Below, piece after piece: positions 9,124 through 55,781 of a stretch of DNA of 64,000 nucleotides; position 1 is the stretch's first letter, and every line of letters begins with the position of its first letter. Source of the stretch: an uncultured Gammaproteobacteria bacterium. GTDB taxonomy: Bacteria > Patescibacteriota > Microgenomatia > Daviesbacterales > UBA10151. Both the position numbers and the translations under genes were made by a program. The stretch covers positions 30,132 to 94,131 of the forward strand of contig CAZYPW010000003.1 in the NCBI GenBank assembly GCA_964649615.1, read 5' to 3'. The notes beneath the pieces were generated by a model. The model made no database searches, was not told the DNA's origin, and saw nothing but the letters and a program-made list of their open reading frames with translations.

Positions 9124-10197
9124 CTACCCTTTAGTTTTAAGCTCAGCTTCAATAAATTCATCTAAGTTCCCATCTAAAACTGCCTCTGTGTCTGAAGTTT
9201 CCACATTAGTCCGCAAATCCTTTACCATATGATAAGGGTGCAGCACATAAGATCTGATCTGGGTTCCCCAGGAACCTTGGGTATTGTTGCCTTTTAACTG
9301 TTTAGTTAACTGTTTTTTTTCTTCTTCTTGTTTCTGCCACAATTTTGCCCTTAACATCTTCAAAGCATTTTCCCTGTTTTGTAGTTGTGACCTTTCTGTT
9401 TGGCAGGTTACTACAATACCAGAAGGAATATGTTTTAATCTAACTGCCGTTGAAACTTTATTAACATTTTGTCCTCCTGCACCTCCTGATCTAAAGGCTT
9501 CAAACTCCAAATCTGCTTCATTTATTTCTACCTCAGTTGAATCTTCGATAACTGGTAGAACCTCAACTAGAGCAAAAGAAGTTTGCCTTAATTTATCTGC
9601 ATTAAAAGGGGACTGCCTAACTAATCTATGGGTGCCTTTTTCTCCTTTTAAATAACCAAAGGCAAAGCTCTCATGGACTATCATAGAAAAAGTTTTATAT
9701 CCCGCTTCTTCCCCAGGCATTTCATCTGTAATTTCAAAACTCCAATCCTTTTTCTCAAAATATCTTTGATACATTCTGGAAAGCATAGCTGCCCAATCCA
9801 TAGCCTCTACTCCTCCAGCACCGGAATGGACAGATAAAATTGCTTCAGCTTCGTCATGTGGATTTGATAAAAACAGTTTCAGTTCCAGCTGATCCAATAT
9901 TTTACCAAGTTCACTAGTTTCTTTTTTTAATTCTTCCATCATCTCCTGCTCCTGCGAGATTTCCAAAGCATTATTTATTCTGCTTTCCAATTCTTCCAAA
10001 GTTTGGAGCGTCTTTTGTTTGTCTGACAGCTGGCGGCTGACAGCTGAAGACTCATTACGATCATTCCAAAACCCTTCTTTCATAGTCTGTGCCTCAAGTT
10101 CCCTGATTTCTTTCCTTAAGATATCCTGATCCATCTGTTCAGAAATCTTTGTAAATCTTTCTTTTAATTCTTTTAATTTATTCTGTATTTCTTCCAT
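9124..10197 (-). CDS. prfB: Peptide chain release factor 2
   Basis: SPF tripeptide ([10 protein letters not shown]) and GGQ motif ([12 protein letters not shown]). 357 aa. Single continuous ORF with no programmed +1 frameshift site. Confidence 0.9.
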
Positions 10198-10622
10198 GAT
10201 GGAATTATATCAGCCTACTCAGCGATCCGCCAGTTGGCGGAGAGCGTGACAATCTACCCAGTGGACAAAATTTTTCGATCGAAACAAAATGTCCAAAAAT
10301 ACCTTTTATGATTGTTACGTAATGCATTACGTAATTAAATACGTACTTCATTATATTCTCGACCGAGAACATAATGAATATCCCGAGGTGTAGCTACAGT
10401 TTCACCTCGGAGGTGGGACACTAATTTAATTTATTTACTAAAATAACTGTTTAAGGCTTTTATTGCTTCTTCCATGTTTTCTTTTTTAATAATAAATGAA
10501 GTTTCGCTGAAGGTTGATACAATTTCTATAATTTGAATCCTTTTAGTAGCCATTGAGGAAAGTAACACAAAAGATATAAACTCCTAGATTTATTGACTCT
10601 GATTAGGTAGAATTTATTCATA

Positions 10623-11156
10623 GTGAATAAAAATTTAATACATTTTATTGTAACAGGTGGGACTATTGATTCTGTGTGGAATGGGGCGCAGGATACTGTG
10701 GTGGTTTCTGAACATTCTGTTTTACCTGAATATTTTGGGGAATTAGGCAGTAATTTAAAGTTTTATGAAGAGCTAAAGTTTACTGAAATTTGTATGAAGG
10801 ATAGCAGGGCTATTAGCGATGAAGACAGGCAAAATGTTTTAAAAGCAATTGAGCAATCAGAAGCTACAAAAATAATTATCACCCATGGAACATACACAAT
10901 GCCAGATACAGCCAAATATTTAAAAGAAAATTTAAAAAGAAAAGATCAAACAATTGTATTGACTGGTTCTATGGTACCTATCAAAGGATTTGATTTTTCT
11001 GATGGACCTTTTAATTTAGGGTATGCTGTGGCACAAGTCCAAAAATTACAAAGCGGAGTTTATGTTTGTATGAATGCCAGAGTGTTTACTCCTGATGAAG
11101 TTGCCAAAAATATAGATGAAGGCAAGTTTTATTCTGTTTTCAGAGAAGAACAATAA
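10623..11156 (+). CDS. Short L-asparaginase-like protein (asparaginase N-terminal domain family)
   Basis: N-terminal HFIVTGGTIDS matches the asparaginase TGGTI threonine motif. 177 aa single-domain form. Confidence 0.5.
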   Translation: MNKNLIHFIVTGGTIDSVWNGAQDTVVVSEHSVLPEYFGELGSNLKFYEELKFTEICMKDSRAISDEDRQNVLKAIEQSEATKIIITHGTYTMPDTAKYLKENLKRKDQTIVLTGSMVPIKGFDFSDGPFNLGYAVAQVQKLQSGVYVCMNARVFTPDEVAKNIDEGKFYSVFREEQ

Positions 11157-20506: not shown

Positions 20507-21246
20507 AAAACCTTCAACTATCAGTAGTGATACCTTCATATAATGAGGCAAAAAACTTAAAAAAAGGAAGTTTAGATAAAGTAGGCAATTATCTTAAAGA
20601 ACAAAAAATTGATTTTGAGGTAATAATTGTTGATGATGGTTCATCTGATTCCTCTGTGGAAATTATCAAAAAATATATTTCAAAAGTCAGAAATTTTAAA
20701 CTAATTCAAAATGCTCATGGAGGAAAAGCCATGGCTGTGATGACAGGCATGATGGAAAGTAAAGGTAATGTTATTCTATTCATAGATATGGATCAGGCCA
20801 CCCCAATTAATCAAATTGAAAAATTTATTCCCAAGTTTGAGGGTGGTTTTAACATTGTTATAGGGTCAAGGCAAGGCAGAAAAGGAGCCCCATTGATCAG
20901 AAAACTGGCAGCCTGGGGATTTTCAGTTTTAAGAGGGATAATTTTGGGATTGCCTTTTAAAGATACCCAGTGTGGGTTTAAAGCTTTTTCTTATGAAGCT
21001 GTAGAAAAATTAATTCCTAAAATTAAGCATGAATGGGGAGTGGTGCATTTTAAGGGAGGAGCAGTTAATGCAGGCTTTGATGTGGAACTTTTATATTTAG
21101 CTAAAAAATATGGGTTTAAAATTGCAGAAGTTCCTGTTGAGTGGAATTATGTAGATACAGAAAGAGTCCAGGTGATCAAAGATGCAGCTGCTGCCATCTA
21201 TGATATGTTAAGAATCAGGATCAATGATCTTTTAGGAAAATATTAA
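20503..21246 (+). CDS. GT2 glycosyltransferase (GtrB/DPM1-like polyprenyl-phosphate sugar synthase)
   Basis: LSVVIPSYNEAKNL, IIVDDGSSDSS, FIDMDQ (DxD). 247 aa soluble GT2. Confidence 0.75.
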   Translation: MKNLQLSVVIPSYNEAKNLKKGSLDKVGNYLKEQKIDFEVIIVDDGSSDSSVEIIKKYISKVRNFKLIQNAHGGKAMAVMTGMMESKGNVILFIDMDQATPINQIEKFIPKFEGGFNIVIGSRQGRKGAPLIRKLAAWGFSVLRGIILGLPFKDTQCGFKAFSYEAVEKLIPKIKHEWGVVHFKGGAVNAGFDVELLYLAKKYGFKIAEVPVEWNYVDTERVQVIKDAAAAIYDMLRIRINDLLGKY

Positions 21247-21284
21247 CCCTGTTAGATTTTTTATAAGTGTGGTAACTTAATCTA

Positions 21285-21824
21285 ATGAGTGATACTCAAG
21301 AAATTTGCCCTAAATGTGGTGCTCCCTTAGGAGAAGTAACAGAAACTCAAAGCGGTAAAAAGCTGCAAAGATGTTCCACTGGATCCTGGAATAAAGAAAC
21401 CAGAAAAAATGAAGGATGTGACTATGTGAAGTGGATACAAGCTGAACCACAAGAGTTAGATGAAAAATGTCCCAAGTGTGGTAATAATTTAATCCTGCAA
21501 GTTACCAGATTTGGCAAGAAGATGAAAAAATGTTCAACAGGTGGTTGGGATGCTGTTGAGAAAAAAGCCACAGGATGTGATTATGTGGAGTGGATTAACG
21601 GAACATCAGAACCCCTTGATATGGATTGTCCAACATGCGGGGAGAAACTGGTATTATTTACAACCTCTGCCGGCAAGAAAATGGAGAAGTGTTCCACATC
21701 CGGCTGGGATAGTGTTAATAGGAAACCAACAGGGTGTACTTATGTTAAATGGCTTAAATCCGGTGAAGTCCCAGCCTCAAATGCAGGTGAAGAATTCCTT
21801 CCACCCCCACCAAAAGAAGAGTAA
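21285..21824 (+). CDS. Protein made of three tandem C4 zinc-ribbon repeats (topoisomerase-I-type/YrdD-like Zn-ribbon variant)
   Basis: Three ~43-aa repeats CPxCGxxL...GKKMxKCSTxGWDxVxxKxTGCxYVxW at aa 7-49, 62-104 and 115-157. 12 Cys total. Confidence 0.55.
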   Translation: MSDTQEICPKCGAPLGEVTETQSGKKLQRCSTGSWNKETRKNEGCDYVKWIQAEPQELDEKCPKCGNNLILQVTRFGKKMKKCSTGGWDAVEKKATGCDYVEWINGTSEPLDMDCPTCGEKLVLFTTSAGKKMEKCSTSGWDSVNRKPTGCTYVKWLKSGEVPASNAGEEFLPPPPKEE

Positions 21825-21833
21825 GATACTATC

Positions 21834-21863
21834 TTGACATACTGACTATATGGTCAGTATTAT
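21834..21863 (+). promoter_or_regulatory. Consensus-like sigma70 promoter (TTGACA-18-TATTAT) overlapped by a perfect 8-N6-8 palindrome ATACTGAC-tatatg-GTCAGTAT (putative LexA-type operator)
   Basis: TTGACA at 21834-21839, TATTAT at 21858-21863. Palindrome 21839-21860 spans the spacer. lexA-like ATG only 9 nt downstream of the -10 (near-leaderless). Confidence 0.5.
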
Positions 21864-21872
21864 AGATAAGTT

Positions 21873-22508
21873 ATGGATACAGTTACTGCCAATCAGAATG
21901 AAAGATTAACTGAAAGACAAAAACAAACCCTGGTGTATATTTATAGTTGCATTAGATATTCAGGATATCCACCTACCTTATCCCAGTTGCGGGAAGAACT
22001 GCAAGTTGTGTCTAATCAGGCAGTCATTGATCTTTTAAAAATTCTGGAAAATAAAAAATACATTCAAAAAGAAGAAAATTCTGCGCGTGCTCTTAAAGTA
22101 ACTCAAAAAGGGTATGAAGAACTAAATGTTTCTCCCTATGCTCCTATGGTCGGGACTACAGCCGCAGGACCGTTTATGGACACTCTAGAACAATATGGCG
22201 AGTGGAAAGAAATATCATCTGATTTATCTAAGCTTTCGGAAAAGCTTGCGCTTTTTAAAATAAAAGGGGATTCAATGACTGGAGCCGGGCTGAGTGAAGG
22301 GGATATTGTGGTTGTGCAGTATGAAATAAATGAATTCCGGAATGGGGATATTGTTTTGGCAAAAAACGATGAAGGGACAACAATAAAAAGATTTGTAAAT
22401 GTAAATGGAAAAATACACTTAGCGCCGGAAAATCCAAAATATTCAAAAATTCCGTTTACTCCAGACTTGCGTCTTATAGGAAAAGTAATCTCAAAAATTG
22501 AAGTATGA
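21873..22508 (+). CDS. lexA: LexA-like repressor (winged-HTH DNA-binding domain + S24 autopeptidase domain)
   Basis: N-term LTERQKQTLVYIYSCIRYSGYPPTLSQLREEL...AVIDLLKILENKKYI. Ala-Gly cleavage region TTAAGPF. C-terminal GDSM...K Ser/Lys dyad region (KGDSMTGAG ... TIKRF). Confidence 0.8.
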   Translation: MDTVTANQNERLTERQKQTLVYIYSCIRYSGYPPTLSQLREELQVVSNQAVIDLLKILENKKYIQKEENSARALKVTQKGYEELNVSPYAPMVGTTAAGPFMDTLEQYGEWKEISSDLSKLSEKLALFKIKGDSMTGAGLSEGDIVVVQYEINEFRNGDIVLAKNDEGTTIKRFVNVNGKIHLAPENPKYSKIPFTPDLRLIGKVISKIEV

Positions 22509-24442
22509 ACACAAAAGAAATTCTGGATAAAATATTTAAAAGCCCTGACCAAAATTATGGCCTTTTGGAATTTAGCAGCCTTCATCCGGAGGATATTTTA
22601 AATATTTTTGAAAAAGAGCCTGGAAAATATTACTTAAAGTGTTTTATCCGGAATAAAGATTTACTTGTTTGGAATGAAGAGAAACAAATTGGAGAACCTG
22701 AAGAAATAGTCAGACAACTTTGGATTCAGAAATTAATAAAAGAATATGAATATCCGCAAGATAGATTAACTGTTGAAGTTACTGTTGATTTTGGGAGGGA
22801 AGTTCATGAAAAAGCAGCAGATATTGTAGTTCTTCAGGATGATAAAGAAACTGCCTGGGTTATCATTGAAACAAAAAGTCCTGATTCAAAAGACGGACTT
22901 GAGCAAATAAAAAGTTACCTTAATGCAAAAGGCGGTCCCATTGGAGTATTAAGTGATGGAAAATCAAAAGTAATTTTATACAGGCCTTATCCGCACCAAT
23001 TTGAAAATACACTTCGGAATATTCCGCGGGCTAATCAAACCATTCAAGATGTTTTTGAATCTCGCCTTACTATAAATGATCTTGAGACTAATTTTGATTT
23101 GGTAAAGATCATTAAAGTTTTAGAAGAGTTGGTTTTGGCGGGCGCAGGTGTTGATTCATTTAATGAAATTTTCAAACTTATTTATGCAAAATTGTATGAC
23201 GAAAAGTACGCAAAGGATCGGAAAGATGAACTTTTATTCCGCCAGTCATCAGATCCGAGAATAACTTACGATAATATTAATAAACTTTTTGAGGATGCAA
23301 AAAAAGAATGGCCGGGAATGTTTTTGGCCGGGGAATCGATTCAACTTTCACCTTCTCATTTGTCGGTATGCATTGGGGAACTGGAAAAAATAAAATTATA
23401 TGATGCGAATTTAGAAATTGTAGACCAGGCATTTGAATATTTGCTTCCGGATGTTGCCAAAGGGAAAAAAGGGCAATATTTTACCCCCCGTCATGTCATA
23501 GATATGGTGGTTAAAATGCTAAATCCTAAAGAAGAAGAGTATGTGATTGATCCGGCTTCCGGATCCGGCGGGTTTTTAATCCATGCGATGCAGTGGGTTT
23601 GGGATCATGGCCTTTTGGAAAAATCCCGGGAAACAAAAATAAATTACGCGGCAACCCACATTTACGGAATAGATTTTGATGATAAGCCGGTAAAAATTTC
23701 CCGCGCTTTAATGCTTATTGCCGGAGACGGAAAATCTCATGTATTTAAATTAAACTCCTTAAACCCAGCAGAATGGAGTGGAGATGAGGGAGAAAAAGGG
23801 GTAGCAAGATATGAGTTACAGCAAAGGTTGCATGAATTTGATGACTATACAAAAGATGAGGATAATAAAAAACATTTTAATGTTTTTGATTTTGATATTT
23901 TACTAAGCAATCCCCCCTTTGCCGGCGAAATAAAAGAAAGAACACTTCTTAATGAATACGAGCTGGCAAAAAACGATAAAGGTAAACTTCGCAACAAAAT
24001 GGAAAGGCATATCCTCTTCATTGAAAGAGCGCTGAACTTGTTAAAACCCGGAGGAAGAATGGCAATAGTGCTACCTCAAGGAGTTCTCAATAATACCAAT
24101 ATGGAATACATTAGAAATTGGATTTTTGATAAAGCCAGAATTTTGGCTGTGGTTGGACTGCATGTAAATACTTTTAAACCACATACAGGTACAAAAACCT
24201 CTGTAATATTTTTGCAAAAATGGGCAGATGATGAAAAAATCCCAGATGATTATCCAATATTTATGGCGGTTTCCAAAAATAGTGGGAAAGATAACAGCGG
24301 TGATTATATGTATAAAAAAGACGCGGAAGGAAATTTTATTATGGATAGCAAAGGGCACAAAGCGGTTAATCATGATCTTAATCAAATAGCAGATTCATTT
24401 ATAGAATTTGCAAAAAAGGAAGGGTTTAGTTTTTGGAGGTAA
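22505..24442 (+). CDS. Restriction-modification A subunit: N-terminal PD-(D/E)xK HSDR_N-like nuclease domain fused to N6-adenine DNA methyltransferase (type IIB/BcgI-like; alternatively atypical type I HsdM)
   Basis: N-term D-IVVL...IIETK...LEQIKSYL...PIGVLSDGK. MTase motif I VIDPASGSGGFL, FTPRHV, motif IV LLSNPPFAGE. 645 aa (BcgI A is ~637 aa). ATGA overlap with lexA-like stop. Confidence 0.65.
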   Translation: MNTKEILDKIFKSPDQNYGLLEFSSLHPEDILNIFEKEPGKYYLKCFIRNKDLLVWNEEKQIGEPEEIVRQLWIQKLIKEYEYPQDRLTVEVTVDFGREVHEKAADIVVLQDDKETAWVIIETKSPDSKDGLEQIKSYLNAKGGPIGVLSDGKSKVILYRPYPHQFENTLRNIPRANQTIQDVFESRLTINDLETNFDLVKIIKVLEELVLAGAGVDSFNEIFKLIYAKLYDEKYAKDRKDELLFRQSSDPRITYDNINKLFEDAKKEWPGMFLAGESIQLSPSHLSVCIGELEKIKLYDANLEIVDQAFEYLLPDVAKGKKGQYFTPRHVIDMVVKMLNPKEEEYVIDPASGSGGFLIHAMQWVWDHGLLEKSRETKINYAATHIYGIDFDDKPVKISRALMLIAGDGKSHVFKLNSLNPAEWSGDEGEKGVARYELQQRLHEFDDYTKDEDNKKHFNVFDFDILLSNPPFAGEIKERTLLNEYELAKNDKGKLRNKMERHILFIERALNLLKPGGRMAIVLPQGVLNNTNMEYIRNWIFDKARILAVVGLHVNTFKPHTGTKTSVIFLQKWADDEKIPDDYPIFMAVSKNSGKDNSGDYMYKKDAEGNFIMDSKGHKAVNHDLNQIADSFIEFAKKEGFSFWR

Positions 24443-24443
24443 T

Positions 24444-24959
24444 ATGAAAAACAAGAAGGAAAAAATATACGCTTTTATAGACAGCCAGAATTTAAATCTT
24501 TCAGTAAGAAATGATATTATCCGAAAGAGGAAAACAGTATATAAAGGATGGCAGCTTGATTTTGAGCGTTTCAACGTTTATATAAAAGCAAAATACCGTG
24601 TCACTAAGTCCTTTCTATTTATCGGGTACAGAAAGGAGAATCAGAATTTGTATGATCGTTTAAATGCGGCAGGGTACGTCCTTATTTTTAAACCGACTCT
24701 TGATTCTCAGGGAAAAACAAAAGGAAATGTTGATGCAGAATTAGTTCTTCATGCCATGGATAAAATTCGGAGATATGATAAGGCTGTATTGGTAACAGGA
24801 GATGGTGACTTTCATTGTCTTGTAGAGTATTTAATCAAGAAAAGGAAATTATATAAAGTCCTTATACCCAATCAATACAGCTACTCCTCTCTTTTAAGGA
24901 AATTTAAACAATATATATCTTTTGTTAACGTATTAAAGAATAAGCTGGAGAGGAAATAA
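24444..24959 (+). CDS. NYN (LabA/Limkain/YacP-like, PIN-fold) nuclease domain protein
   Basis: IYAFIDSQNL...GNVDAELVLHAMD...AVLVTGDGDF are the acidic motifs of the NYN domain. Start set at ATG 24444 preceded by GGAGG, rather than the overlapping 24408. Confidence 0.65.
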   Translation: MKNKKEKIYAFIDSQNLNLSVRNDIIRKRKTVYKGWQLDFERFNVYIKAKYRVTKSFLFIGYRKENQNLYDRLNAAGYVLIFKPTLDSQGKTKGNVDAELVLHAMDKIRRYDKAVLVTGDGDFHCLVEYLIKKRKLYKVLIPNQYSYSSLLRKFKQYISFVNVLKNKLERK

Positions 24960-25082
24960 AGCGAGTTTGTTGCTTCGCAATAAAAAAGACAGGCATTTGC
25001 GCGGCATGAAAGCCTTTGCAGGAGCCTGTCATCGTGATTAGTAGTAGTATACGTTTATATTAAAGTAAAGTCAAGACTAACT

Positions 25083-26444
25083 ATGTCATTTTCAATAATT
25101 CAAAAATCTCAACTTGAAGGAGCGTATAGATTGGATGCGGAATATTATCAGCCGGAATACTTAGAAGTAGTCAATAAAATTTCAAAAATTCCCCACAATA
25201 TCTTAGAAAATATCTCTGAGAGCTTGTTAAGCTTCGGAGCATATTCACTTACCAGTTCTATAGTATGGCAGGAGTCTGGGATCCCATTTATCACAGCAGA
25301 AGACATCAAAGAAGGATTTATTGCTCTTGAAAACGTACGCTTTATAGATGAGAGGGCAGATGAAATTTTAAAAAAGTCTAGAGTTCATGAAGGCGAAGTG
25401 TTATTGGCTATGTCAGGTAAAGTTGGAGATACGGCTGTAGCGATTAATATTCCACCACGGCTTAATTCGAACCAAGATATAGTCAAAATTAAACTTAAAA
25501 AAAATTATTCGTCATACCTTCTCGCTGCTTTTCTGAACTCTACGTATGGAAGATTACAAATATTACGTCTCCCAGTTGGAAGCGTACAGCAACATATATT
25601 TCTTTGGCAAACTAAGTCATTATTGGTTCCAAAATTTCCGAAGAATCTCATTGAAGAAGTTGAACAGTCATATAAATTAGGGCTAGAAGAACTTGAAAAT
25701 TCAAGATTACTTTACAAACAAGCTGAAGACGTACTATTGAATGGATTGGGGCTCAAGAATTTTCAAGTTGAAGATGATTTATGTTTTGTTGTTAATCTTT
25801 CAGGTGTAAAATCTGCAAACAGAGTTGATGCTGAACATTTTCAGCCAAAATACGAAGAGTTATTAGAGAAAATTCAGCAAAAGAATACTAAAGTATTTAC
25901 TGACGTTATTAGGAATGTAACAGCAAAATTTAATCCTCTTAAAACATCAGATGAAACTTTTAAATATGTCGAACTTGCAAACATAAATTCTTCAATTGGA
26001 GTCATTGATGGATATTCAGAGATTCTAGGAAAGGAAGCACCAAGTAGAGCTAAAAGATTACTTAAAAAGGGAGATGTTATTGTATCAAGTGTTGAAGGTT
26101 CATTGGAAAAAGTCGCACTAGTAGATGGTACTCAAGAGGGGTACTTGGCCTCTACAGGATTTTTTCAGCTTAGATCAGAAGGAATATTGCCAGAAGTGCT
26201 TTTAGTTTTAGCAAAAAGTATTGTTATGCAGTGGCAATTAAAAAAACATTGCGCAGGAACCATCTTAACAGCAGTACCTAGTGAATCTTTACAGAAAATG
26301 TTTGTACCCGCAATACCAAAGGAGACTCAGCAAAAAATTGCGGAGTTGGTAAGAAAGTCGCATGAAGCCAGAAAGAAATCAAGAGAGCTTTTAGAAGAAG
26401 CAAAAAGAAAAGTTGAAGAGATGATAGAAAAGGGTAGTTCGTGA
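25083..26444 (+). CDS. hsdS: Restriction-modification specificity (S) subunit with two target-recognition domains
   Basis: Internal duplication (RLDAEYYQPEY / RVDAEHFQPKYEELL). Conserved HsdS helices LLVPKFPKNLIEEVEQ and MFVPAIPKETQQKIAELV. 453 aa. Confidence 0.75.
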   Translation: MSFSIIQKSQLEGAYRLDAEYYQPEYLEVVNKISKIPHNILENISESLLSFGAYSLTSSIVWQESGIPFITAEDIKEGFIALENVRFIDERADEILKKSRVHEGEVLLAMSGKVGDTAVAINIPPRLNSNQDIVKIKLKKNYSSYLLAAFLNSTYGRLQILRLPVGSVQQHIFLWQTKSLLVPKFPKNLIEEVEQSYKLGLEELENSRLLYKQAEDVLLNGLGLKNFQVEDDLCFVVNLSGVKSANRVDAEHFQPKYEELLEKIQQKNTKVFTDVIRNVTAKFNPLKTSDETFKYVELANINSSIGVIDGYSEILGKEAPSRAKRLLKKGDVIVSSVEGSLEKVALVDGTQEGYLASTGFFQLRSEGILPEVLLVLAKSIVMQWQLKKHCAGTILTAVPSESLQKMFVPAIPKETQQKIAELVRKSHEARKKSRELLEEAKRKVEEMIEKGSS

Positions 26445-27015: not shown

Positions 27016-28509
27016 GTGAAGCTGATTTTAAAACACAAAGTTGAAATATTAATTATTTTAAGTTTAATTAGCGTATATTTTATTCTAAGGTTGCCTAATT
27101 TAACCTTGCAGCCTATTTTTGCAGATGAGGCAATTTATATCAGATGGGCACAAGTTATGAGAGCAGAGCCCACCTTAAGGTTCCTGCCTGTTTCTGATGG
27201 CAAAACTCCCTTGTTCATGTGGACTTTAATGCCTTTACTTAAATTTATCCCTGATCCACTTTTGGCAGGAAGGCTGCTGTCTGTTTTAGTGGGTTTTTTA
27301 ACTTTGTTAGGAGTATATTTTCTTTCCAAAAAAGTGTTTGGCATACAAGCTGCTTTTTGGGCTGCTCTTTTATATGTAATTACTCCATACACTGTTTTTT
27401 TTGATAGGATGGCTTTGGTGGATTCTATGCTAGCAGGTTTTACTATATGGATAATTTATTTTGCTATCTGGCTTATTAAAAAAACTAGATTAGATATAGC
27501 TATGATTTTAGGATATTTAATAGGAGGAGGGATTTTAACTAAAACTCCTGGGATGATTAATCTGTTGTTACTGCCAATCACCCTTATAGCTGTTAAATGG
27601 AGGAGAAAGTATCCAATTTTAAAAGTAGTGATGTTTTGGACTGTTACTATCTTTGTAGCTTTAGTTATGTATAACATACTGAGGTTAGGACCCCAATTTC
27701 AGATTTTATCTTCTAGAAATACTGACTATGTTTTTTCTCCCCTGGAACTGGTTGGCAGGCCGCTAGATCCTTTTATTCCCCATATGAGAGATCTGTCTGA
27801 TTGGTTTCCCAAACTGTTTACCTGGCCTATACTTTTTTGTATAGCGATAGGCATTTTATATACCTTAATTAAGACTAATAGGCTGGGTTTAATAATCTTA
27901 CTTTGGGCAGTAGTTCCATTGCTGGTTCAGTCTGCCTTTTTAAAAACTTTTACAGCTAGATATTTACTATCTTCTATACCCCCACTTTTAATTATTGGGG
28001 GCTTTGGCATCACCAATCTTTTGCCAAAGTTCTCTGCTTTTAATAGGTTTTCCTACCTTTTAATGCTAATTGTGGTTTTGCCACTGGCTTTAAATTTTGA
28101 CTTCTTGCTTCTTACTGATCCCCAAAAGGCCCCTTTGCCTAGGGCAGAAAGAATTGGTTATTTTGAGGAGTGGACTGCCGGATATGGTTTTTTTGAGATA
28201 GCCTCTTTCCTAAAAGACCAAAGAAGATTGGGAAAAGTAGTAGTTGGAACAGAAGGTTCTTTTGGAACGCTGCCAGATGGTTTACAAATATATCTAGATA
28301 AAGAGGACATAGCAGTAATAGGCAGTACTGGAAGTATTTCTGCACAAATTAAAGGTTCAGCCAAGGATAATTTAACTTTTTTTGTGGGAAATAAATTAAG
28401 GTTAGAAAATGGCATAGATGGAGTAGAAATAATTAAAGAATACCCTAAAGCTAAACCACCAAAAAATGGCAAACAAGATGCAATTGTCTTGTTTAAAGTT
28501 TTGCCTTAA
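27016..28509 (+). CDS. GT-C glycosyltransferase, family 39/83-like (ArnT/PMT-like, polyprenyl-phosphate-sugar dependent)
   Basis: First-loop motif PIFADEAIYIRWAQVM...GKTPLFMW. About 12 TM. Confidence 0.7.
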   Translation: MKLILKHKVEILIILSLISVYFILRLPNLTLQPIFADEAIYIRWAQVMRAEPTLRFLPVSDGKTPLFMWTLMPLLKFIPDPLLAGRLLSVLVGFLTLLGVYFLSKKVFGIQAAFWAALLYVITPYTVFFDRMALVDSMLAGFTIWIIYFAIWLIKKTRLDIAMILGYLIGGGILTKTPGMINLLLLPITLIAVKWRRKYPILKVVMFWTVTIFVALVMYNILRLGPQFQILSSRNTDYVFSPLELVGRPLDPFIPHMRDLSDWFPKLFTWPILFCIAIGILYTLIKTNRLGLIILLWAVVPLLVQSAFLKTFTARYLLSSIPPLLIIGGFGITNLLPKFSAFNRFSYLLMLIVVLPLALNFDFLLLTDPQKAPLPRAERIGYFEEWTAGYGFFEIASFLKDQRRLGKVVVGTEGSFGTLPDGLQIYLDKEDIAVIGSTGSISAQIKGSAKDNLTFFVGNKLRLENGIDGVEIIKEYPKAKPPKNGKQDAIVLFKVLP

Positions 28510-28513
28510 GGAA

Positions 28514-30217
28514 ATGGATTTTTTAAAAAATAGGCCTTACAAATTTTGGCTTATCCTAACAATTATTTTTATCATGCCTACCTTTTATCAACTATTAAGG
28601 TTAGGTTTTTTTCCAATGCAGGATGACCTGCAGGCCTTTAGAGTGCATCAAATGGTTAAGTGCTTAAAAGATTTTCAAATCCCCTGCAGATGGGTTCCTG
28701 ACATGGGTTATCAATATGGCTATCCCCAGTTTAACTACTATAGCCCAACACCTTATTATTTTGGAGCTTTGCTTAATTTATTAGGTTTACAAATTATTGA
28801 TTCAGTGAAGATTTTATTTATAGCAGGATTTATTTTATCAGCAGCCTCAATGTTTGTTTTTTTAAAAGCTTTATTTAATCCTCAAATTGCCTTTGTTGGG
28901 TCAGTCTTTTATAGCTATGCCCCTATTAAAGCATCCCAAGTTTATGTCAGAGGATCTCTTAGTGAATTTTGGGCATTTATCTTTTTGCCTTTAATTTTTT
29001 GGTCAACTTTGCAGTTAATCAGATTAGGTAAAGTTAAATATCTGATTTGGTTTTCTATCTCCCTTTTTTTACTGCTGACTACTCATAATTTAACGACCTT
29101 TATTTTTTTACCAATACTTTTAGGGTGGTTTTTTTTAACTGCATTCTTAGAAAAAAAATGGCAGAATTTAACTTGGGTGGGAATGGGATTTCTTTTAGGA
29201 GCAGGATTGGCATCTTTTTATCTTTTGCCTTTAATATTTGAGAGAGATTATGTTCATCTGGAAAGTTTATTGGGAGGATATTTTGATTATAGGCAGCATT
29301 TTGTCAGTATTAAGCAGTTACTTTTTTCTAATTATTTTGGGTATGGGTCTTCTGTGTTTGGATTAAATGATGAGGTCAGTTTATCAGTGGGAATCATGCA
29401 TGGAGTTTTTGGACTGTTAGCCTTAATCTTGTCAATGCTCTTTTTTAAAAAAGATAAAAAGATCTCTCTAATAATTTGGAGCTTGTTTTTGCTAGAAACT
29501 TTAGTTTTATTTTTAATGCATCAAAGATCTTCATTTATTTGGGAAAGAATTCCTCTTTTGCACTGGCTACAATTTCCCTGGAGGTTTTTAACTATCTCTT
29601 TATTCTTGCTGACAATTTTAGGTGTAAGCAGCATTTATCTAATCAATAAAATTAATCAAAAAGCAGCCCTTTTTATAAGTTTAATATTAATTACCAGTGT
29701 CATTGTTTTACACGGCGGATTTTATAAACCCCGTGAATGGTTTAATATTTCAGATCAGGAAAAATTTTCTGGCCAGTTGTGGGAAAAACAGTTAACAATC
29801 AGTATTTTTGACTATCTTCCTATTTATGCTAAACTTCCTCCTAATAAAAAGGCTCCTTTGGAACCAGAGGTTTTAGAAGGTGATGTAAAATTTATCAGTT
29901 ACAAAAAAGGAAGCAATTTTCAAAAAGGGGTAATTGAAGTGGGAGGGGATTCTATTATTAGAGTTCCCTTATTTGATTTTCCTGGCATGGCAGTTAGGCT
30001 AAATAATCAAAAGATTATTCATAAAAATAATGATTGCAGGGGGGAGGAATATTGTTTTGGATTAATAACTTTTGCAGTTCCTCAAGGTCAGCATACCTTT
30101 GAAGTTAAACTAGAAGATACCTTTATTAGGGCATTAGGGAATATAATAAGTTTAATTAGTATTTTGGCATTGTTCTTCTTAATATTTAAAAATTATGGTT
30201 CTAAAAAGATTAATTGA
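28514..30217 (+). CDS. Polytopic membrane protein of an uncharacterised GT-C-like family (conserved KCxxDFQIPCRWVPDxGxxYGYPxFNYY loop); paralog 1 of 4
   Basis: HQMVKCLKDFQIPCRWVPDMGYQYGYPQFNYYSPTPYYF. About 13 TM, then C-terminal extracytoplasmic domain plus TM anchor. Start moved to ATG 28514 (upstream part overlaps previous gene). Confidence 0.5.
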   Translation: MDFLKNRPYKFWLILTIIFIMPTFYQLLRLGFFPMQDDLQAFRVHQMVKCLKDFQIPCRWVPDMGYQYGYPQFNYYSPTPYYFGALLNLLGLQIIDSVKILFIAGFILSAASMFVFLKALFNPQIAFVGSVFYSYAPIKASQVYVRGSLSEFWAFIFLPLIFWSTLQLIRLGKVKYLIWFSISLFLLLTTHNLTTFIFLPILLGWFFLTAFLEKKWQNLTWVGMGFLLGAGLASFYLLPLIFERDYVHLESLLGGYFDYRQHFVSIKQLLFSNYFGYGSSVFGLNDEVSLSVGIMHGVFGLLALILSMLFFKKDKKISLIIWSLFLLETLVLFLMHQRSSFIWERIPLLHWLQFPWRFLTISLFLLTILGVSSIYLINKINQKAALFISLILITSVIVLHGGFYKPREWFNISDQEKFSGQLWEKQLTISIFDYLPIYAKLPPNKKAPLEPEVLEGDVKFISYKKGSNFQKGVIEVGGDSIIRVPLFDFPGMAVRLNNQKIIHKNNDCRGEEYCFGLITFAVPQGQHTFEVKLEDTFIRALGNIISLISILALFFLIFKNYGSKKIN

Positions 30218-31862
30218 TAAATTCTGGCCACATTTAATTATTTTTATTTTATCTTTACTAGTTGCTTGGCCAATTTTTTTGCCTGGATATTTTTCCCATC
30301 ATGATGATTTGCAGGTTATGAGAGTTTTTGAGATGAGAAAATGCCTGGAGGATTTTCAGATTCCTTGTAGGTGGGTACCAGATTTAGGTTTTGGCAACGG
30401 CTATCCTTTATTTAATTACTATAATAGCCTTCCTTATTATATAGGAGCTTTAGCCAGTTTTACCCTGGGCTTTATAGGCGGGGCAAAATTATTATTCTTA
30501 ATTGCTGTAATCTTGGCTGGATTCTCCATGTATCTTTTAGCAAATAGGCTTTTTGGATTATATCCTAGCTTAGTGGCAGCTACCCTTTATATATATGCAC
30601 CATATAGAGCACTGGATATATATGTTAGAGGTGCAATTGCTGAGAGTTTTTCTTTGGCGATCATCCCGCTAGTATTTTATTTTGCCATAAGAGCCTCAAA
30701 GGAAAACTTAGTAAAAAATTATATCTTCCTGAGCCTTTCCCTGGCAGCTTTTCTAGCTAGCCATAATATTATGACCCTGCTTTTTTCACCTTTAATAGTT
30801 CTTTTTTTTATCATTATGCTTTGGGGAAAAAATTGGCAGGTAGCTAAAAAGACCCTATTTTTTATAAGTCTAGGGTTGGGGTTGTCTAGTTTTTTTATTT
30901 TGCCGGCATTTTTGGAAAAAGATTTAGTGCAGATAGATAATTTGACAAGATTAGAGCTAGATTTCAGAGCCCACTTTGTCACTTTACCTCAACTCTTTTT
31001 AGATAGAACTTGGGGTTATGGGGCTTCCTTTCCTGGAGTGGGGGACACTATTTCTTTTCAGGTAGGTTGGCCTCATTGGTTAATAGTGATTTTATCTATT
31101 CCCTCGTTAGTTTTCTTAAAAAGAAAGAACCTGAGATTATTTTGGCTCAGTTTAATGATGTTGCTATTTTTTAGTTTCCCCCTATTTATGGCTCATAACA
31201 GGTCTGCCTTTATTTGGGAACAGATTGGGATTTTGAGGTTTACCCAATTTCCCTGGAGATTTTTATCAGTGGCAATTTTTACTAGTAGCTTATTAGGTGC
31301 AATTTTAATTTATAACTTTAAAATTAGTTGGCAAAAAATCATGGTTATCATCTTAGTTCCAGTAATAATTTTGTTAAATTGGAGTTACTTTAGGCCACAT
31401 CAATTTTATCCAAATCTCACAGACCAGGAAAAGCTTTCGGGAGTACTTTGGCAGACCCAGCAAAGAGCTTCAATCCTGGACTATCTTCCTGTTACTGCTG
31501 TGGAACCTAGGGAAGCAGCCCCATCAGAACCTATTATTGTCTCAGGCCAAGCAGAAGTTAATAATTTTAAGAACAGGTCAAATAGATGGGAATTTAAAAT
31601 AAATGTTTTATCACCAACTGTTGTAGAAATGCCAGTGTTTGATTTTCCTAAGTGGCAGGTATATGTAGATGGAAAGAAGGTAGATCACTCAAATAAAAAT
31701 TACTTGGGCAGAATAAGCATCAATCTCCCTTCTGGTAATTATAAAGTGGTAGGAAAATTTGAAAATACCCCAATAAGGATTCTGGGTAACCTTGTTACCT
31801 TTGTTTCTATTGCAATTATTATATTTTTAACCTATGGGAAAATTGGAAAAATTAGTAGATAA
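30195..31862 (+). CDS. Same family, paralog 2 of 4
   Basis: FEMRKCLEDFQIPCRWVPDLGFGNGYPLFNYYNSLPYYI. Same architecture. Confidence 0.5.
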   Translation: MVLKRLIDKFWPHLIIFILSLLVAWPIFLPGYFSHHDDLQVMRVFEMRKCLEDFQIPCRWVPDLGFGNGYPLFNYYNSLPYYIGALASFTLGFIGGAKLLFLIAVILAGFSMYLLANRLFGLYPSLVAATLYIYAPYRALDIYVRGAIAESFSLAIIPLVFYFAIRASKENLVKNYIFLSLSLAAFLASHNIMTLLFSPLIVLFFIIMLWGKNWQVAKKTLFFISLGLGLSSFFILPAFLEKDLVQIDNLTRLELDFRAHFVTLPQLFLDRTWGYGASFPGVGDTISFQVGWPHWLIVILSIPSLVFLKRKNLRLFWLSLMMLLFFSFPLFMAHNRSAFIWEQIGILRFTQFPWRFLSVAIFTSSLLGAILIYNFKISWQKIMVIILVPVIILLNWSYFRPHQFYPNLTDQEKLSGVLWQTQQRASILDYLPVTAVEPREAAPSEPIIVSGQAEVNNFKNRSNRWEFKINVLSPTVVEMPVFDFPKWQVYVDGKKVDHSNKNYLGRISINLPSGNYKVVGKFENTPIRILGNLVTFVSIAIIIFLTYGKIGKISR

Positions 31863-33510
31863 ATACTGGTTTATTATCTTAATAGTTCTGTCCATTCCCG
31901 CTACTTGGGCATTATTTGTTAATGGTTACTATGGAGCTTCAGATGATATGCATCCGGCTTGGTTATATGAGCTGGATAAAACCATAAAGTTAGGACAAAT
32001 CCCTCCCAGGTTTGTACCAGATTTGAGTTTTGGATTTGGTTATCCCTTATTCAATTTTGCCTTTCCTCTGCCTTTTTATATAGCAGAGGTTTTCCATCTG
32101 TTAGGATTTTCCCTGGTTGATAGCATTAAAACAGTTTTTTTCTTAAGCATTCCTCTTTCAGCTTATTTTATGTATCTCTTTTTAAGAGAGTTTATAAGTA
32201 GAACTTTAAGTTTAGCTGGGGCAGTTCTTTATATCTATGCTCCTTACAGAGCAGTTGATATATATATCAGGGGAACAATAGGGGAGATTGTTAGTTTTAT
32301 ATTCTTACCGCTGATCTTTTTGTCTTTATTTAAGCTAAAGCATGCTTTCAACGGGAGATGGATTGGGATTGGAGGGTTTGCTCTTGCTTCCCTAGTCTTG
32401 TCGCACAATATTGCTGCTTATATGTTTTTTCCTTTTTTAATCCTATTTTTTGTATTGCATTTAATTTTTTCCTCAAAAAAATTACTATTTTTAATAAATT
32501 CTATTTTGATGGTTTTTCTAGCCCTTTTGATCAGTATTTATTTTTGGCTACCAGCACTAGTAGAAAGTAGTTTAATGAAGTATGATGCTGTTTTTAATTT
32601 TGCTGATCATTTTCCTACTATTAAACAGCTATTTACTCCCTATTGGGGGTACGGGTCTTCAGTGCCTGGGCCTTATGATGGCATGTCTTTCTTTTTAGGA
32701 ACTGTACATATTTTAATGATAGTTTTGGGTATAAGTTTATCTATCAGTTTTTGGAAAAAGTTTAATAAAAATATCAAGATATTACTAATATGGGTTTTTT
32801 TGTCTTTAAGTGCTGTCTTTTTCATCATGAACTATAGATCTTCTTTTTTATGGAGCAACATCCCTCTTCTGCCTTATTTTCAATTTCCTTGGAGATTTTT
32901 AATATTAACTACTTTTGCCATACCACTATTGATAGTAGTTTTTGATAAGTTTAAGCATAAATATAGTATTTCTTTGTTAATAATTATTATTACTTTAATT
33001 ACAGGTTGGAGTTATTTTCGGCCTCAAGATTTTCTGGGCCGCCAGGATGTTTATTATCTAAACCGCTATATTCCCACTCCAACTGCAAGTTTAGAATATT
33101 TAAAAATTCAAGAAGAATATTTACGATTACCAAAAAATACTGATAAAAGGCCGGATCGGAATTATCCTTTGGTTTTTATAGATAATGGATTAATTAAACA
33201 GGTAAGCAGGATAAATGACTTGGATGTTTTAATAAGAACGGAGGCAACTTCAGTTGCCACACTTAATTATAGTAAATATTTGTTTCCTGGTTGGGTGGCT
33301 GAAATAGATGGTCAGAAAACAGAAACTTTAGCTGGTAAACCATTTGGACAAATTACTGTGAATGTAGCTTCAGGCAGCCATACAGTTAAAATTATATTTG
33401 AGGAAACAAACTTTAAGAGATTCTTAAATGCTATCTCTTTGGTTAGTTTTTTAGTATCATTAGGATTAATCACAAACTTGTGGCCTCGAGTATTCAGACT
33501 CTTTAAGTAG
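31834..33510 (+). CDS. Same family, paralog 3 of 4 (lacks the conserved Cys pair)
   Basis: YELDKTIKLGQIPPRFVPDLSFGFGYPLFNFAFPLPFYI. Same architecture. Confidence 0.5.
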   Translation: MGKLEKLVDKYWFIILIVLSIPATWALFVNGYYGASDDMHPAWLYELDKTIKLGQIPPRFVPDLSFGFGYPLFNFAFPLPFYIAEVFHLLGFSLVDSIKTVFFLSIPLSAYFMYLFLREFISRTLSLAGAVLYIYAPYRAVDIYIRGTIGEIVSFIFLPLIFLSLFKLKHAFNGRWIGIGGFALASLVLSHNIAAYMFFPFLILFFVLHLIFSSKKLLFLINSILMVFLALLISIYFWLPALVESSLMKYDAVFNFADHFPTIKQLFTPYWGYGSSVPGPYDGMSFFLGTVHILMIVLGISLSISFWKKFNKNIKILLIWVFLSLSAVFFIMNYRSSFLWSNIPLLPYFQFPWRFLILTTFAIPLLIVVFDKFKHKYSISLLIIIITLITGWSYFRPQDFLGRQDVYYLNRYIPTPTASLEYLKIQEEYLRLPKNTDKRPDRNYPLVFIDNGLIKQVSRINDLDVLIRTEATSVATLNYSKYLFPGWVAEIDGQKTETLAGKPFGQITVNVASGSHTVKIIFEETNFKRFLNAISLVSFLVSLGLITNLWPRVFRLFK

Positions 33511-33519
33511 AAAAAGATT

Positions 33520-35253
33520 ATGCTTCCAATAAATATTTTTAAGAATAAAATTTTAAAGAGCAATTGGCCATTTTTTGTAGGTTTGATCTTAACGCTCAGC
33601 CTCCTTTGGCCACTTGTGGCTGCATCCTTTTTTAACCATCATGATGATGTCCAGGTAATTAGGCTTCATCAAATGGATAAATGTTTTAAAGACTTTCAAA
33701 TTCCTTGCAGGTGGGTACCAGACTTAGGAGGTCTATATGGTTACCCGATTTTTAACTATTATGCCCCAATGCCTTATTACTTTGGTGAAGTTATTTATTT
33801 TCTAAGCAATAATTTAATTTTTTCAGTAAAAATAATGTTTGCAGTAAGCTTTGTGGGAAGCTTTCTCTTTATGTATCTTCTCTCATCTCGTTTTTGGGGG
33901 AAATTGGGAGGTGCGTTATCTGCCATTTTTTATAGCTTTGCACCATATCATGCTCTAGATTTTTATGTCAGGGGGGCAATGGGTGAGATGTGGGCATTAA
34001 TGTTTTTTCCGGCCATCTTGTGGAGTGTAGTTAGGCTTGAGGATAAAACAAATGTTAAAAATCTAATATTTTTTTCTATCTTTTTATTTTTTCTTATAAC
34101 TTCCCATAATCTTTCAACTATTATTTTTTCACCAATAATTTTGGTTTGGATTTTTGTTCTTTATTTGAAAGATAAACACAAAAAATTTATCCTGTTTAGT
34201 TTAATGGGGATAATTTTAGGAGTTTTATTATCTGCATTTTACCTTTTCCCCATGGCTTTGGAAAAAAATCTGGTTCATGTTGAGACAACAACTTATGGAT
34301 ACTTTTCCTATACTGAGCATTTTAAGGGTTTAAGGAAATTGATTCTTGATAGATCCTGGGGCTGGGGAGGTTCTGTACGGGAAGTGCCAGGAGGAGAAAG
34401 AGAAGGCTTGTCATATCAAATAGGTTGGATTCATCTTCTAGCTTTGGCCTTATCTGTTATATCAGCCAAATACCTTATGAATAAAAACAGATGGTTAAGC
34501 TGGGTCATTATTTCATCAATAACTTTAGTTTTAATAAGTATTTTTATGATACATCCAAGGTCACAATTTATTTGGAAGATATTTGACGGGACACTTCGTT
34601 TTATTCAATTCCCCTGGAGATTTCTGATGATTACTATATTTTTTATATCTTTTATGTCGGGAAGCATATTTTTAAGAGGTATAAAGAGAGAAAAATTAGC
34701 TTGGAGTATTTTAGTTATTCTAGTTGTAACAGCTAATTTCTTTTATTTTAGGCCTGAGAAATTTTTATCAGCTACAGATAAAGATTTATTGTCAGGTGAA
34801 AATTGGGAAAGGCAAATAAAAAGATCAATATTTGATTATTTGCCTAAATCTGCTAAAGAACCCCCTGCTGAACTTGCCAAAGAAAGATATAAAATTTTAA
34901 CTGGAGATTCGCAAATTTTTGATTTTGAGCAAGGATCAAACTGGTTAAAATTTAAAACAGAGACCAATACTCATACTATTATCCGTTTATCCCAGTATTA
35001 TTTTCCGGGTTGGAAAATTCTAATAGATGGAAAAGAAACAAATGTAGAATATGCCAACAATAGTTTGGGTTTAATGACTATTATTTTAGGTAGAGGCAAC
35101 CATTTAGTTGAAGGTAGATTATATGATACCCAAATAAGGACTATTGGTAATATTACTACTTTAGTATTTTGGGTAGGGTTAGTTTTTGTCTTATTATTAC
35201 AATTCAAAAAAGTTCATCAATGGATTGAATATTATAGGAGGAGAATTAATTAA
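33520..35253 (+). CDS. Same family, paralog 4 of 4
   Basis: HQMDKCFKDFQIPCRWVPDLGGLYGYPIFNYYAPMPYYF. Same architecture. Confidence 0.5.
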   Translation: MLPINIFKNKILKSNWPFFVGLILTLSLLWPLVAASFFNHHDDVQVIRLHQMDKCFKDFQIPCRWVPDLGGLYGYPIFNYYAPMPYYFGEVIYFLSNNLIFSVKIMFAVSFVGSFLFMYLLSSRFWGKLGGALSAIFYSFAPYHALDFYVRGAMGEMWALMFFPAILWSVVRLEDKTNVKNLIFFSIFLFFLITSHNLSTIIFSPIILVWIFVLYLKDKHKKFILFSLMGIILGVLLSAFYLFPMALEKNLVHVETTTYGYFSYTEHFKGLRKLILDRSWGWGGSVREVPGGEREGLSYQIGWIHLLALALSVISAKYLMNKNRWLSWVIISSITLVLISIFMIHPRSQFIWKIFDGTLRFIQFPWRFLMITIFFISFMSGSIFLRGIKREKLAWSILVILVVTANFFYFRPEKFLSATDKDLLSGENWERQIKRSIFDYLPKSAKEPPAELAKERYKILTGDSQIFDFEQGSNWLKFKTETNTHTIIRLSQYYFPGWKILIDGKETNVEYANNSLGLMTIILGRGNHLVEGRLYDTQIRTIGNITTLVFWVGLVFVLLLQFKKVHQWIEYYRRRIN

Positions 35254-50285: not shown

Positions 50286-50935
50286 AAAAGTTAAAAAAAT
50301 TAGAGGATATTTGGAATCAAGTGCCTCCTGATTACTACCAGACTGGAGTTAAAAGTAATGCCTTTCAGTGGATTTGGCATAGTTGGAAATGGTATTCAAT
50401 AAAACAAATACTAAAGTTTGCAAAGATTGAGGCTTTAAAAATTCTTGATATTGGTTGTGCTTCAGGTTATCTTACTTTTCAAATAGCCACTTTTTTTCCT
50501 AATGCAGAAGTTGTGGGGATTGATTCCTATAAAAGAGCTATAGAATATGGCCAAAAAATTTATCCAAATATTAAATTTAAAGTAGGTGATGCCCATAAAC
50601 TTCCCTTTAGTAATGAGAATTTTGACTTGATAACTTGTATTGAAACCTTGGAACATGTTGAAGCACCTGAAGAAGTAATTAGAGAAATAAAACGTTGTTT
50701 GAAAAAGAATGGAAAAGTTTTAATTGGCCAAGATACAGATAATTTACTTTTTAAAATTATTTGGTTGATTTGGACAAAGTCTCGAGGTAAAGTTTGGCAT
50801 AATTCTCACATTCATCCCTATGGAGCAAAAGATTTAGAAAAATTGATAAAAAGATGCGGCCTAAGGATTGTTAAGAAAAAACTATCTCATTTTGGTTTAG
50901 AAATATTCTTTTTAGCAGAAAAATCCAGTCCTTAA
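50282..50935 (+). CDS. Class I SAM-dependent methyltransferase
   Basis: ILDIGCASGYLT (motif I), FDLITCIETLEHV, KKNGKVLI. 217 aa. Confidence 0.75.
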   Translation: MKKLKKLEDIWNQVPPDYYQTGVKSNAFQWIWHSWKWYSIKQILKFAKIEALKILDIGCASGYLTFQIATFFPNAEVVGIDSYKRAIEYGQKIYPNIKFKVGDAHKLPFSNENFDLITCIETLEHVEAPEEVIREIKRCLKKNGKVLIGQDTDNLLFKIIWLIWTKSRGKVWHNSHIHPYGAKDLEKLIKRCGLRIVKKKLSHFGLEIFFLAEKSSP

Positions 50936-55623: not shown

Positions 55624-55695
55624 TCACTAGCAGAAAACCCCGTTTTCTTAAAACGAGGATGAATGCTAAAGTGATTACAGTCTTCCGCGGGATAG

Positions 55696-55769
55696 GTGGT
55701 ATACTGAGTTAAGGTTTTCTGCAGTTTCTTGTAAACTTTTAAAGAAAACCGCGGACTCTCAGTCCGCGG
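55696..55769 (+). promoter_or_regulatory. Extended -10 promoter (TGgTATACT) followed by a perfect GC-rich palindrome CCGCGGACT-ctc-AGTCCGCGG 13 nt upstream of the next GT39 start
   Basis: TGGTATACT at 55696-55704. 9-bp-arm palindrome at 55749-55769. Both read directly from sequence. Confidence 0.4.
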
Positions 55770-55781
55770 AAGTTTATAACT

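Follow-up and report, generated by a model that had tools for sequence, protein, structure and literature searches.

The DNA stretch analysed here, called the window, comprises 64,000 nucleotides (64 kilobases, kb) of contig CAZYPW010000003.1 from an uncultured member of the Patescibacteria and carries a gene for the SOS repressor LexA. Its promoter contains a perfect palindrome of 22 base pairs (bp), and directly behind lexA lie the genes of a putative restriction-modification (RM) system. A sequence-only reading of the window had proposed that the palindrome is the operator through which the lexA product represses its own gene. The features of the promoter and of lexA are the following; lengths are given in nucleotides (nt) and amino acids (aa).

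21834–21839, + strand: -35 hexamer TTGACA of the lexA promoter (sequence read; promoter scan, 11/12)
21839–21860: perfect 22-bp palindrome (8+6+8), ATACTGAC-TATATG-GTCAGTAT, proposed LexA operator (sequence read)
21858–21863, + strand: -10 hexamer TATTAT (sequence read; promoter scan)
21869–21872, + strand: predicted transcription start, 6–9 nt past the -10 hexamer, giving a leader of 1–4 nt (promoter geometry; no Shine-Dalgarno sequence)
21873–22508, + strand: lexA, 211 aa, with winged-helix DNA-binding and S24 self-cleaving domains (Pfam, TIGR00498)

The palindrome, the lexA promoter and the LexA protein

All coordinates of the sequence-only reading proved exact, including the palindrome, the 18-bp spacing between TTGACA and TATTAT, the overlaps with both hexamers and the 9 nt (21864–21872) between the end of the -10 hexamer and the lexA ATG at 21873. 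The left arm of the palindrome overlaps the -35 hexamer by one base and the right arm overlaps the -10 hexamer by three. The conserved core, CTGAC-N6-GTCAG, occupies 21842–21857, within which GAC (21844–21846) and GTC (21853–21855) are the invariant bases. With 11/12 matches, the lexA promoter ranked first among the 19 promoter-like sites found in a scan of 21000–25500.

The open reading frame (ORF) at 21873–22508, previously described as lexA-like, is a complete, canonical LexA. Its N-terminus matches PF01726 (LexA_DNA_bind; residues 10–73, E = 1.4e-12) and its C-terminus PF00717 (Peptidase_S24; E = 2.9e-24), and it scores 126.3 bits with the TIGR00498 equivalog model, the cut-off of which is 110.95. 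The Ala-Gly cleavage site (A98-G99) and the dyad S134/K172 are invariant in 32 sequences, and solved LexA structures from Thermotoga and Escherichia coli (3k2z, 1jhh, 3jso) align along the full protein. The LexA homologs found are all from Patescibacteria, the nearest named genome being that of a Candidatus Curtissbacteria member (82% identity).

Conservation of the box and its probable role as an operator

Relatives of the locus were assembled in two ways: 32 species-level lexA loci were collected by an alignment-based search of genome contigs, a single-protein search having given none, and a metagenome motif scan and contig look-ups supplied further lexA loci (contigs are designated L001 onwards). 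None of the 30 aligned Patescibacteria lexA promoters departs from the GAC and GTC of the arms, and in each of them these bases lie between the -35 and -10 hexamers; the TT of the -35 hexamer is invariant as well, and its GA is present in 29 of the 30. Information content in the same alignment is 1.6–1.7 bits per column in the arms, 1.25 in the inner spacer (consensus TAWWTA), 0.62 in the -10 hexamer and 0.39 in the upstream flank. The fourth base of the half-site is likewise invariant in relatives, being A on the left and T on the right. An exact GAC-N6-GTC was present no more than 40 nt from the start in 51 of 55 lexA genes. Every one of the Microgenomates loci has CTGAC-N6-GTCAG directly 3' of TTGAC(A) and running into the -10 hexamer, and the Parcubacteria have shorter arms, (A/T)GAC-N6-GTCAT. 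By these alignments, the box in the window is the Microgenomates variant (CTGAC-N6-GTCAG) of a GAC-N6-GTC box common to the Patescibacteria.

A 20-column matrix was constructed from the sites of 20 relatives, excluding that of the window. With this matrix the palindrome site of the window scored 30.8 bits. The runner-up in the window reached 8.6 bits, a score at the level of chance; 30 shuffled windows yielded scores of up to 10.7 bits. The genes 5' of lexA vary from locus to locus, as does the type of RM system 3' of it; since the upstream neighbors vary, the box belongs to lexA.

Two contigs of Daviesbacteria, L010 and L138, contain two tandem lexA paralogues each, with operators of the forms CCGAC-N6-GTCGG and CTGAC-N6-GTCAG at these positions:

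L010, 1207–1226 and 1992–2011: operators of the two paralogues
L138, 5237–5256 and 6022–6041: operators of the two paralogues

In both contigs the change is symmetrical, altering both arms, as expected if a duplicated dimeric repressor had shifted its specificity. A comparison of the recognition helices of paralogues with differing operators revealed no clear specificity residue. A degraded operator of the CCGAC type, ACCAGAATAAATAGTCGGGT, is present in L172.

The metagenome scan for the 18-mer ACTGACYAWWTRGTCAGT gave at least 120 matches, including 24 lexA promoters among the matches listed, and in all 24 of these LexA-ORF sites TTGAC abuts the box on the lexA side. The other matches listed were TetR-linked operators, extended terminator-like hairpins, or sites in contigs of high G+C content (high-GC), and no promoter-embedded box was found among them before another gene of the Candidate Phyla Radiation (CPR). 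A scan of viral sequences for the motif yielded 10 matches, and the surroundings of none resembled a promoter.

Very probably, a LexA dimer binds this palindrome as its operator and thereby represses the lexA promoter, as the sequence-only reading had it; among the evidence is that the palindrome is kept in the lexA promoters of Microgenomates and, in shortened form, of Parcubacteria. The predicted dimer geometry, with its 16-bp span and TACTG-N10-CAGTA frame, is as in the E. coli LexA site. Bound LexA would cover the spacer together with the adjoining ends of the two hexamers, blocking RNA polymerase, and upon DNA damage, sensed through RecA on single-stranded DNA, LexA would cleave itself and free the promoter. 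Transcription would then begin 1–4 nt 5' of the ATG and give a leaderless messenger RNA on which lexA is joined to the RM genes, so that the operator would set the level of both.

The lexA transcript is probably leaderless. An exact GAC-N6-GTC is present at 51 lexA genes; 49 of them have no Shine-Dalgarno sequence and the end of the box 13–18 nt upstream of the ATG, and the two exceptions have a longer leader with AGGAGG. Many genes of the window possess a TATAAT-like hexamer 5–10 nt 5' of the start codon (e.g. at 10197, 18279, 18326 and 26457), and a Shine-Dalgarno-like motif precedes about 13 of 50 window ORFs. The spacing in 49/51 genes and the hexamers across the window therefore support the leaderless transcript that the sequence-only reading had deduced from the short -10 to ATG distance, and leaderless messenger RNAs may be the rule in this genome.

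Perfect DnaA boxes (TTATCCACA) were observed just 5' of the lexA promoter in some Patescibacteria, no more than 150 bp upstream of lexA in L016, L019, L020, L021, L023 and L027, and also in L033, L105 and L118. Six of the seven DnaA boxes in 194 kb of loci sit just upstream of a lexA promoter. The window has none at lexA, its sole DnaA box being at 49885.

Comparison with known LexA boxes and alternative explanations

Several observations weigh against the palindrome being a LexA operator, or one of the expected kind. The AT-rich window holds about as many palindromes of this size as chance would give: 32 perfect inverted repeats (arms of at least 8 bp, spacer 0–10) were counted, as compared with 34.9 ± 8.1 in first-order Markov simulations, and the lexA palindrome is the sole one with a 6-bp spacer, 3.7 ± 1.9 being expected. 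The GAC-N6-GTC core occurs once in 64 kb (1.85 expected) and CTGAC-N6-GTCAG with up to two mismatches nine times (7.4 expected). The identical 18-mer adjoins TetR_N genes in the unrelated contigs L057, L062, L126 and L128; the sequence of the 18-mer alone does not identify its binder. The matrix scan revealed no second site above chance in the window, and about 45 related loci, searched over 3–10 kb around lexA, gave no further one that reached 11 bits, paralogue operators excepted. The recA promoters of L163 and L172, two lexA carriers in which recA lies directly 5' of lexA, contain no box. Lastly, a LexA-binding motif of Patescibacteria was published by Sanchez-Osuna, Barbe and Erill in 2017 (Environ Microbiol 19:3465, doi 10.1111/1462-2920.13826). 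One paper citing that study groups the 2017 motif with the direct-repeat LexA motifs, whereas the Microgenomates site is plainly palindromic; the motif itself is not quoted in the papers found citing the study. The 2017 motif, for the LexA of this superphylum, was nonetheless reportedly obtained by comparing lexA promoters and tested in vitro, and it is most probably the box described here.

Taken alone, the palindrome is within chance, and its significance therefore depends on its surroundings and on how well it is conserved: chance does not account for its having been kept at one promoter position across dozens of orthologous lexA promoters. No second copy of the palindrome exists in the window, even at three mismatches, which extends the earlier observation that none was seen. 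One candidate, a one-mismatch site at 22698–22713 in the methyltransferase gene, was discarded, since relatives do not possess it and it is at chance level.

The 20-bp site TACTGACTATATGGTCAGTA is identical at 15 of 20 positions to the E. coli SOS box TACTGTATATATATACAGTA (TACTG(TA)5CAGTA), and the whole TACTG-N10-CAGTA frame is kept. Both systems have a dyad-symmetric site of 16–20 bp in the repressor's own promoter and a self-cleaving canonical LexA, and the E. coli-type arrangement of CTG and CAG 10 bp apart is present here (CTG 21842–21844, CAG 21855–21857). In the E. coli box, CTGT-N8-ACAG, the fourth base of the half-site is T, whereas here it is A, followed by C (CTGAC; CTGA/TCAG). The box has CTGA in place of CTGT and is therefore not classed as E. 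coli-type; each half-site of the CPR box differs from the E. coli one by a single base. The E. coli lexA gene has two operators, whereas here there is one, between the -35 and -10 hexamers of a predicted leaderless promoter; E. coli LexA has a regulon and dinF as partner, whereas here the partner is an RM system and recA is apparently unregulated. The Gram-positive Cheo box (GAAC-N4-GTTC) is also a palindromic LexA operator, often in the lexA promoter, but differs in half-site sequence and spacing, and the motif is absent from 21830–21872. The sequence-only reading had described a lineage-specific box that is neither of the E. coli nor of the Cheo type. The missing Cheo motif, the differing fourth base and the conservation within the lineage agree with this description, which must be softened by the 15 of 20 bases shared with E. 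coli.

The lexA site might belong to a conventional regulon with many SOS boxes, embracing recA, uvrA, dinB and others, and simply be the box that happens to lie in the window. LexA proteins normally control several operons, the 64 kb examined belong to a genome of perhaps 1 megabase, and no other DNA-repair gene that could bear a box is present among the scanned ORFs of the window. The recA promoters of L163 and L172 are nonetheless conserved yet devoid of a box: apart from the lexA operators themselves (30.6 bits in L163, 5.3 in L172), the best matrix score in these recA regions is below 0, and the LexA of L163 is 80% identical to that of the window. Nor has ruvB, which lies beside lexA in L013, a box, and the roughly 45 lexA loci are without the extra site mentioned above. 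Among the metagenome matches listed, boxes with abutting TTGAC precede LexA-like ORFs (24), except in the TetR-linked L128. No box was found at the recA loci of Levybacteria either, though these may be without such a LexA altogether. The regulon of recA, uvrA and dinB anticipated in the sequence-only reading was thus not seen in the window, in about 45 lexA loci or in the recA promoters of two relatives, and we consider a conventional regulon rather unlikely, though it is the best placed of the alternatives.

The recA promoters themselves are conserved and apparently leaderless, with the sequence ttgtattttatcacaaaagtaYtacaat followed by 9 nt to the ATG. In Levybacteria a TAACAA-N4-TTGTTA palindrome is common to these promoters, located between the -35 and -10 hexamers, and a sequence resembling a transfer RNA was noticed by eye just 5' of recA in several loci. 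The promoters are located as follows.

L163, 1540–1600: recA promoter
L172 and L174, 9940–10003: recA promoter
L166 and L169, 9900–10003: recA promoter

A site between nrd genes in L078 was considered as a further target, ribonucleotide reductase being a possible member of the CPR SOS network, and rejected: it forms a longer hairpin, sits in a spacer of 440 bp and lacks a -35 hexamer. The spacer (L078 10073–10514; also in L065) separates a gene resembling that of the ribonucleotide reductase large subunit from the next ORF and contains a version of the palindrome with 10-bp arms, GGTACTGAC...GTCAGTACC, which resembles a structured element more than it does an operator.

It is very improbable that another regulator, for instance one of the TetR family, binds the site. 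The TetR-linked copies of the 18-mer speak for such a protein, as does the description of GAC-N6-GTC for TetR-type regulators in the literature. Against it, no TetR gene flanks the site or occurs among the scanned window ORFs, in all CPR-like contigs the box goes with lexA, and the lexA paralogues bear matching operator variants. As to the TetR-linked sites, L128 has two copies of the 18-mer in a divergent promoter region, the high-GC contigs L040, L047, L056, L102 and L125 possibly also carry a TetR-linked 18-mer, and several high-GC contigs have ACTGACCAATTGGTCAGT before ORFs of 200–300 aa.

Still less credible is an RNA hairpin that terminates transcription of the upstream zinc-ribbon gene: the palindrome begins 15 nt past the stop codon ending at 21824 and could form a 9-bp stem, but there is no U-tract after the stem, only 3 of 8 stem pairs are G-C, the fold (-14.6 kcal/mol, z = -1.34) is equalled by 17 of 200 shuffled sequences, the site is absent from the output of the terminator scan, and the arm sequence is conserved rather than covarying and stays with lexA as the upstream genes change.

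The probable restriction-modification operon and lexA-linked defence genes

Downstream of lexA, the following genes were identified.

22505–24442, + strand: RM subunit of 645 aa, with HSDR_N_2 nuclease-like and N6-adenine methyltransferase domains (Pfam)
24444–24959, + strand: gene for an NYN-domain protein, with a GGAGG ribosome-binding site (Pfam NYN)
25083–26444, + strand: HsdS-like specificity subunit, 453 aa (Pfam Methylase_S)

The stop codon of lexA overlaps the start of the 645-aa RM gene (ATGA), i.e. lexA is translationally coupled to the restriction-modification gene, a point missed in the sequence-only reading; the NYN gene starts 2 nt past the methyltransferase stop, and the terminator scan found no convincing terminator. 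The 645-aa protein was recognized by PADLOC as MTase_I (629 bits) and the specificity subunit as Specificity_I. The NCBIfam models MADS2 and MADS5 matched the two proteins with 319.6 bits (cut-off 720) and 143.7 bits (cut-off 400), respectively; membership of the MADS defence system was rejected, both scores being below cut-off and no other mad genes being present in the operon. Among proteins of solved structure, the 645-aa protein comes closest to RM.BsaXI, a type IIB enzyme, the match spanning the methyltransferase part only. In 15 orthologues, E91, D106, E122-x-K124, the GSGGF motif and NPPF are invariant; these comprise nuclease-like residues and methyltransferase motifs I and IV. The genes at 22505–26444 resemble a type IIB (BcgI/BsaXI-like) restriction-modification system, in which a single polypeptide unites a PD-(D/E)xK nuclease motif with an N6-adenine methyltransferase and the specificity subunit is separate; the 645-aa protein is a candidate for such a polypeptide. 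The slot between the methyltransferase and specificity genes is occupied in relatives by NYN, DUF4145, DUF3800, GIY-YIG or unknown genes, and the gene order of the window operon recurs in L163 and L172.

It is likewise very improbable that GAC-N6-GTC is the bipartite target of the operon's own methyltransferase and specificity subunit, with methylation tuning the promoter instead of, or besides, LexA. Target sites of the 3-N6-3 format are characteristic of type I and type IIB enzymes, there is an adenine in each half of the box, and the enzyme is encoded in the same operon; but the box is unchanged beside MvaI/BcnI, PstI or EcoRII types or Cas12a, the specificity subunits are variable (24–46% identity where detected), and one occurrence in 64 kb is about chance.

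The gene 5' of lexA (21285–21824) encodes a 179-aa protein with three four-cysteine zinc-ribbon repeats, one of which matches the Pfam topoisomerase I zinc-finger model; no such gene was found beside lexA in relatives. Most of the window is devoted to cell-envelope glycosylation, with long runs of membrane glycosyltransferase-like paralogues of 500–580 aa (PMT_2, PTPS_related, PMT) at 27016–35253, 42099–43706 and 50935–60639, and other sugar-nucleotide and glycosyltransferase genes nearby. A perfect 20-bp palindrome, TTACGTAATGCATTACGTAA, lies at 10315–10334 in a divergent intergenic region flanked by a release-factor gene (9124–10197, minus strand) and an asparaginase-like gene (10623–11156). 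A G+C-rich hairpin, CCGCGGACTCTCAGTCCGCGG, at 55749–55769 is a possible terminator and sits between two large membrane-protein genes (end 55623; start 55782). In other contigs, a repeated element, aaaACTGACTATATAGTCAGTttagtcctacac, was noticed (L088, L103, L115, L141, L145 and L114; 40–44% GC).

The gene that follows lexA was recorded in L001–L032, L108, L116, L124, L138, L163 and L172. In all 32 species-level loci a defence gene lies directly 3' of lexA on the same strand, usually 0–100 nt away. In most relatives this is an RM gene of the 645-aa type, and the pair of lexA and methyltransferase genes spans Curtissbacteria to Moranbacteria. The methyltransferases share 50–83% identity where the LexA proteins share 37–82%, the divergences of the two correlate (r = 0.86, n = 21), and in most loci the methyltransferase is the more conserved. 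Counting all loci, the systems after lexA are RM systems of four kinds or Cas12a; the arrangements other than the 645-aa type are the following.

L010, L011, L013, L014: N4/N6 methyltransferase and MvaI/BcnI nuclease
L017: Eco57I-type methyltransferase and PstI/BsuBI nuclease
L006: EcoRII-type nuclease and C5 methyltransferase
L016, L116: N4/N6 methyltransferase alone
L124: N4/N6 methyltransferase fused in frame to LexA, 491 aa
L007: NYN, then Cas12a

In L172, a block of lexA, RM, GIY-YIG and S genes lies between recA and recX; in Levybacteria loci these two genes are neighbours. What separates recA from recX varies: nothing in L166, a Y1 transposase in L169, and an M16 peptidase with an NYN gene in L174. 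The regions concerned are these.

L172, 10001–18171: recA-recX region
L166, 10001–12915: recA-recX region
L174, 10001–14982: recA-recX region

These arrangements raise the possibility, which we put forward tentatively, that LexA of Patescibacteria is mainly a damage-responsive controller of an exchangeable defence module and not of repair genes. The lexA gene and its operator would have stayed fixed at the head of the operon, the defence cargo being exchanged many times, and the single palindrome would be the control point raising methylation and restriction upon DNA damage, e.g. during phage attack. Repair synthesis that leaves DNA unmethylated may be an alternative trigger.

The logic of LexA as an immunity controller would be comparable to that of two known kinds of regulator. 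The C proteins of type II RM systems, acting at C-boxes, are likewise small regulators encoded by the first gene, with a palindrome in their own promoter, and set RM expression. Unlike these, LexA has a self-cleaving S24 domain and should respond to damage, acts as repressor only, and stays while the RM type behind it changes. The WYL regulators DdaA of the Moraxellaceae (PMC12392091) and BrxR (PMC9122589) link DNA damage to the expression of RM or CRISPR-Cas systems. These regulators come from another protein family and another group of bacteria, and at least DdaA activates instead of repressing; a WYL protein replaces LexA in those bacteria, whereas here LexA itself would act.

The proposed operator would be a case of textbook autorepression, a clean and strongly conserved example that supplies a ready matrix for whole-genome scans of CPR bacteria. 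The association of lexA with defence genes is the more interesting point. Regulators and CRISPR systems are both scarce in CPR bacteria. Should the pattern described here extend to whole genomes, the SOS repressor of these reduced and probably symbiotic bacteria would have become a damage-sensing immunity switch, which, if true, would bear on how CPR bacteria manage phage defence without cutting their own DNA.

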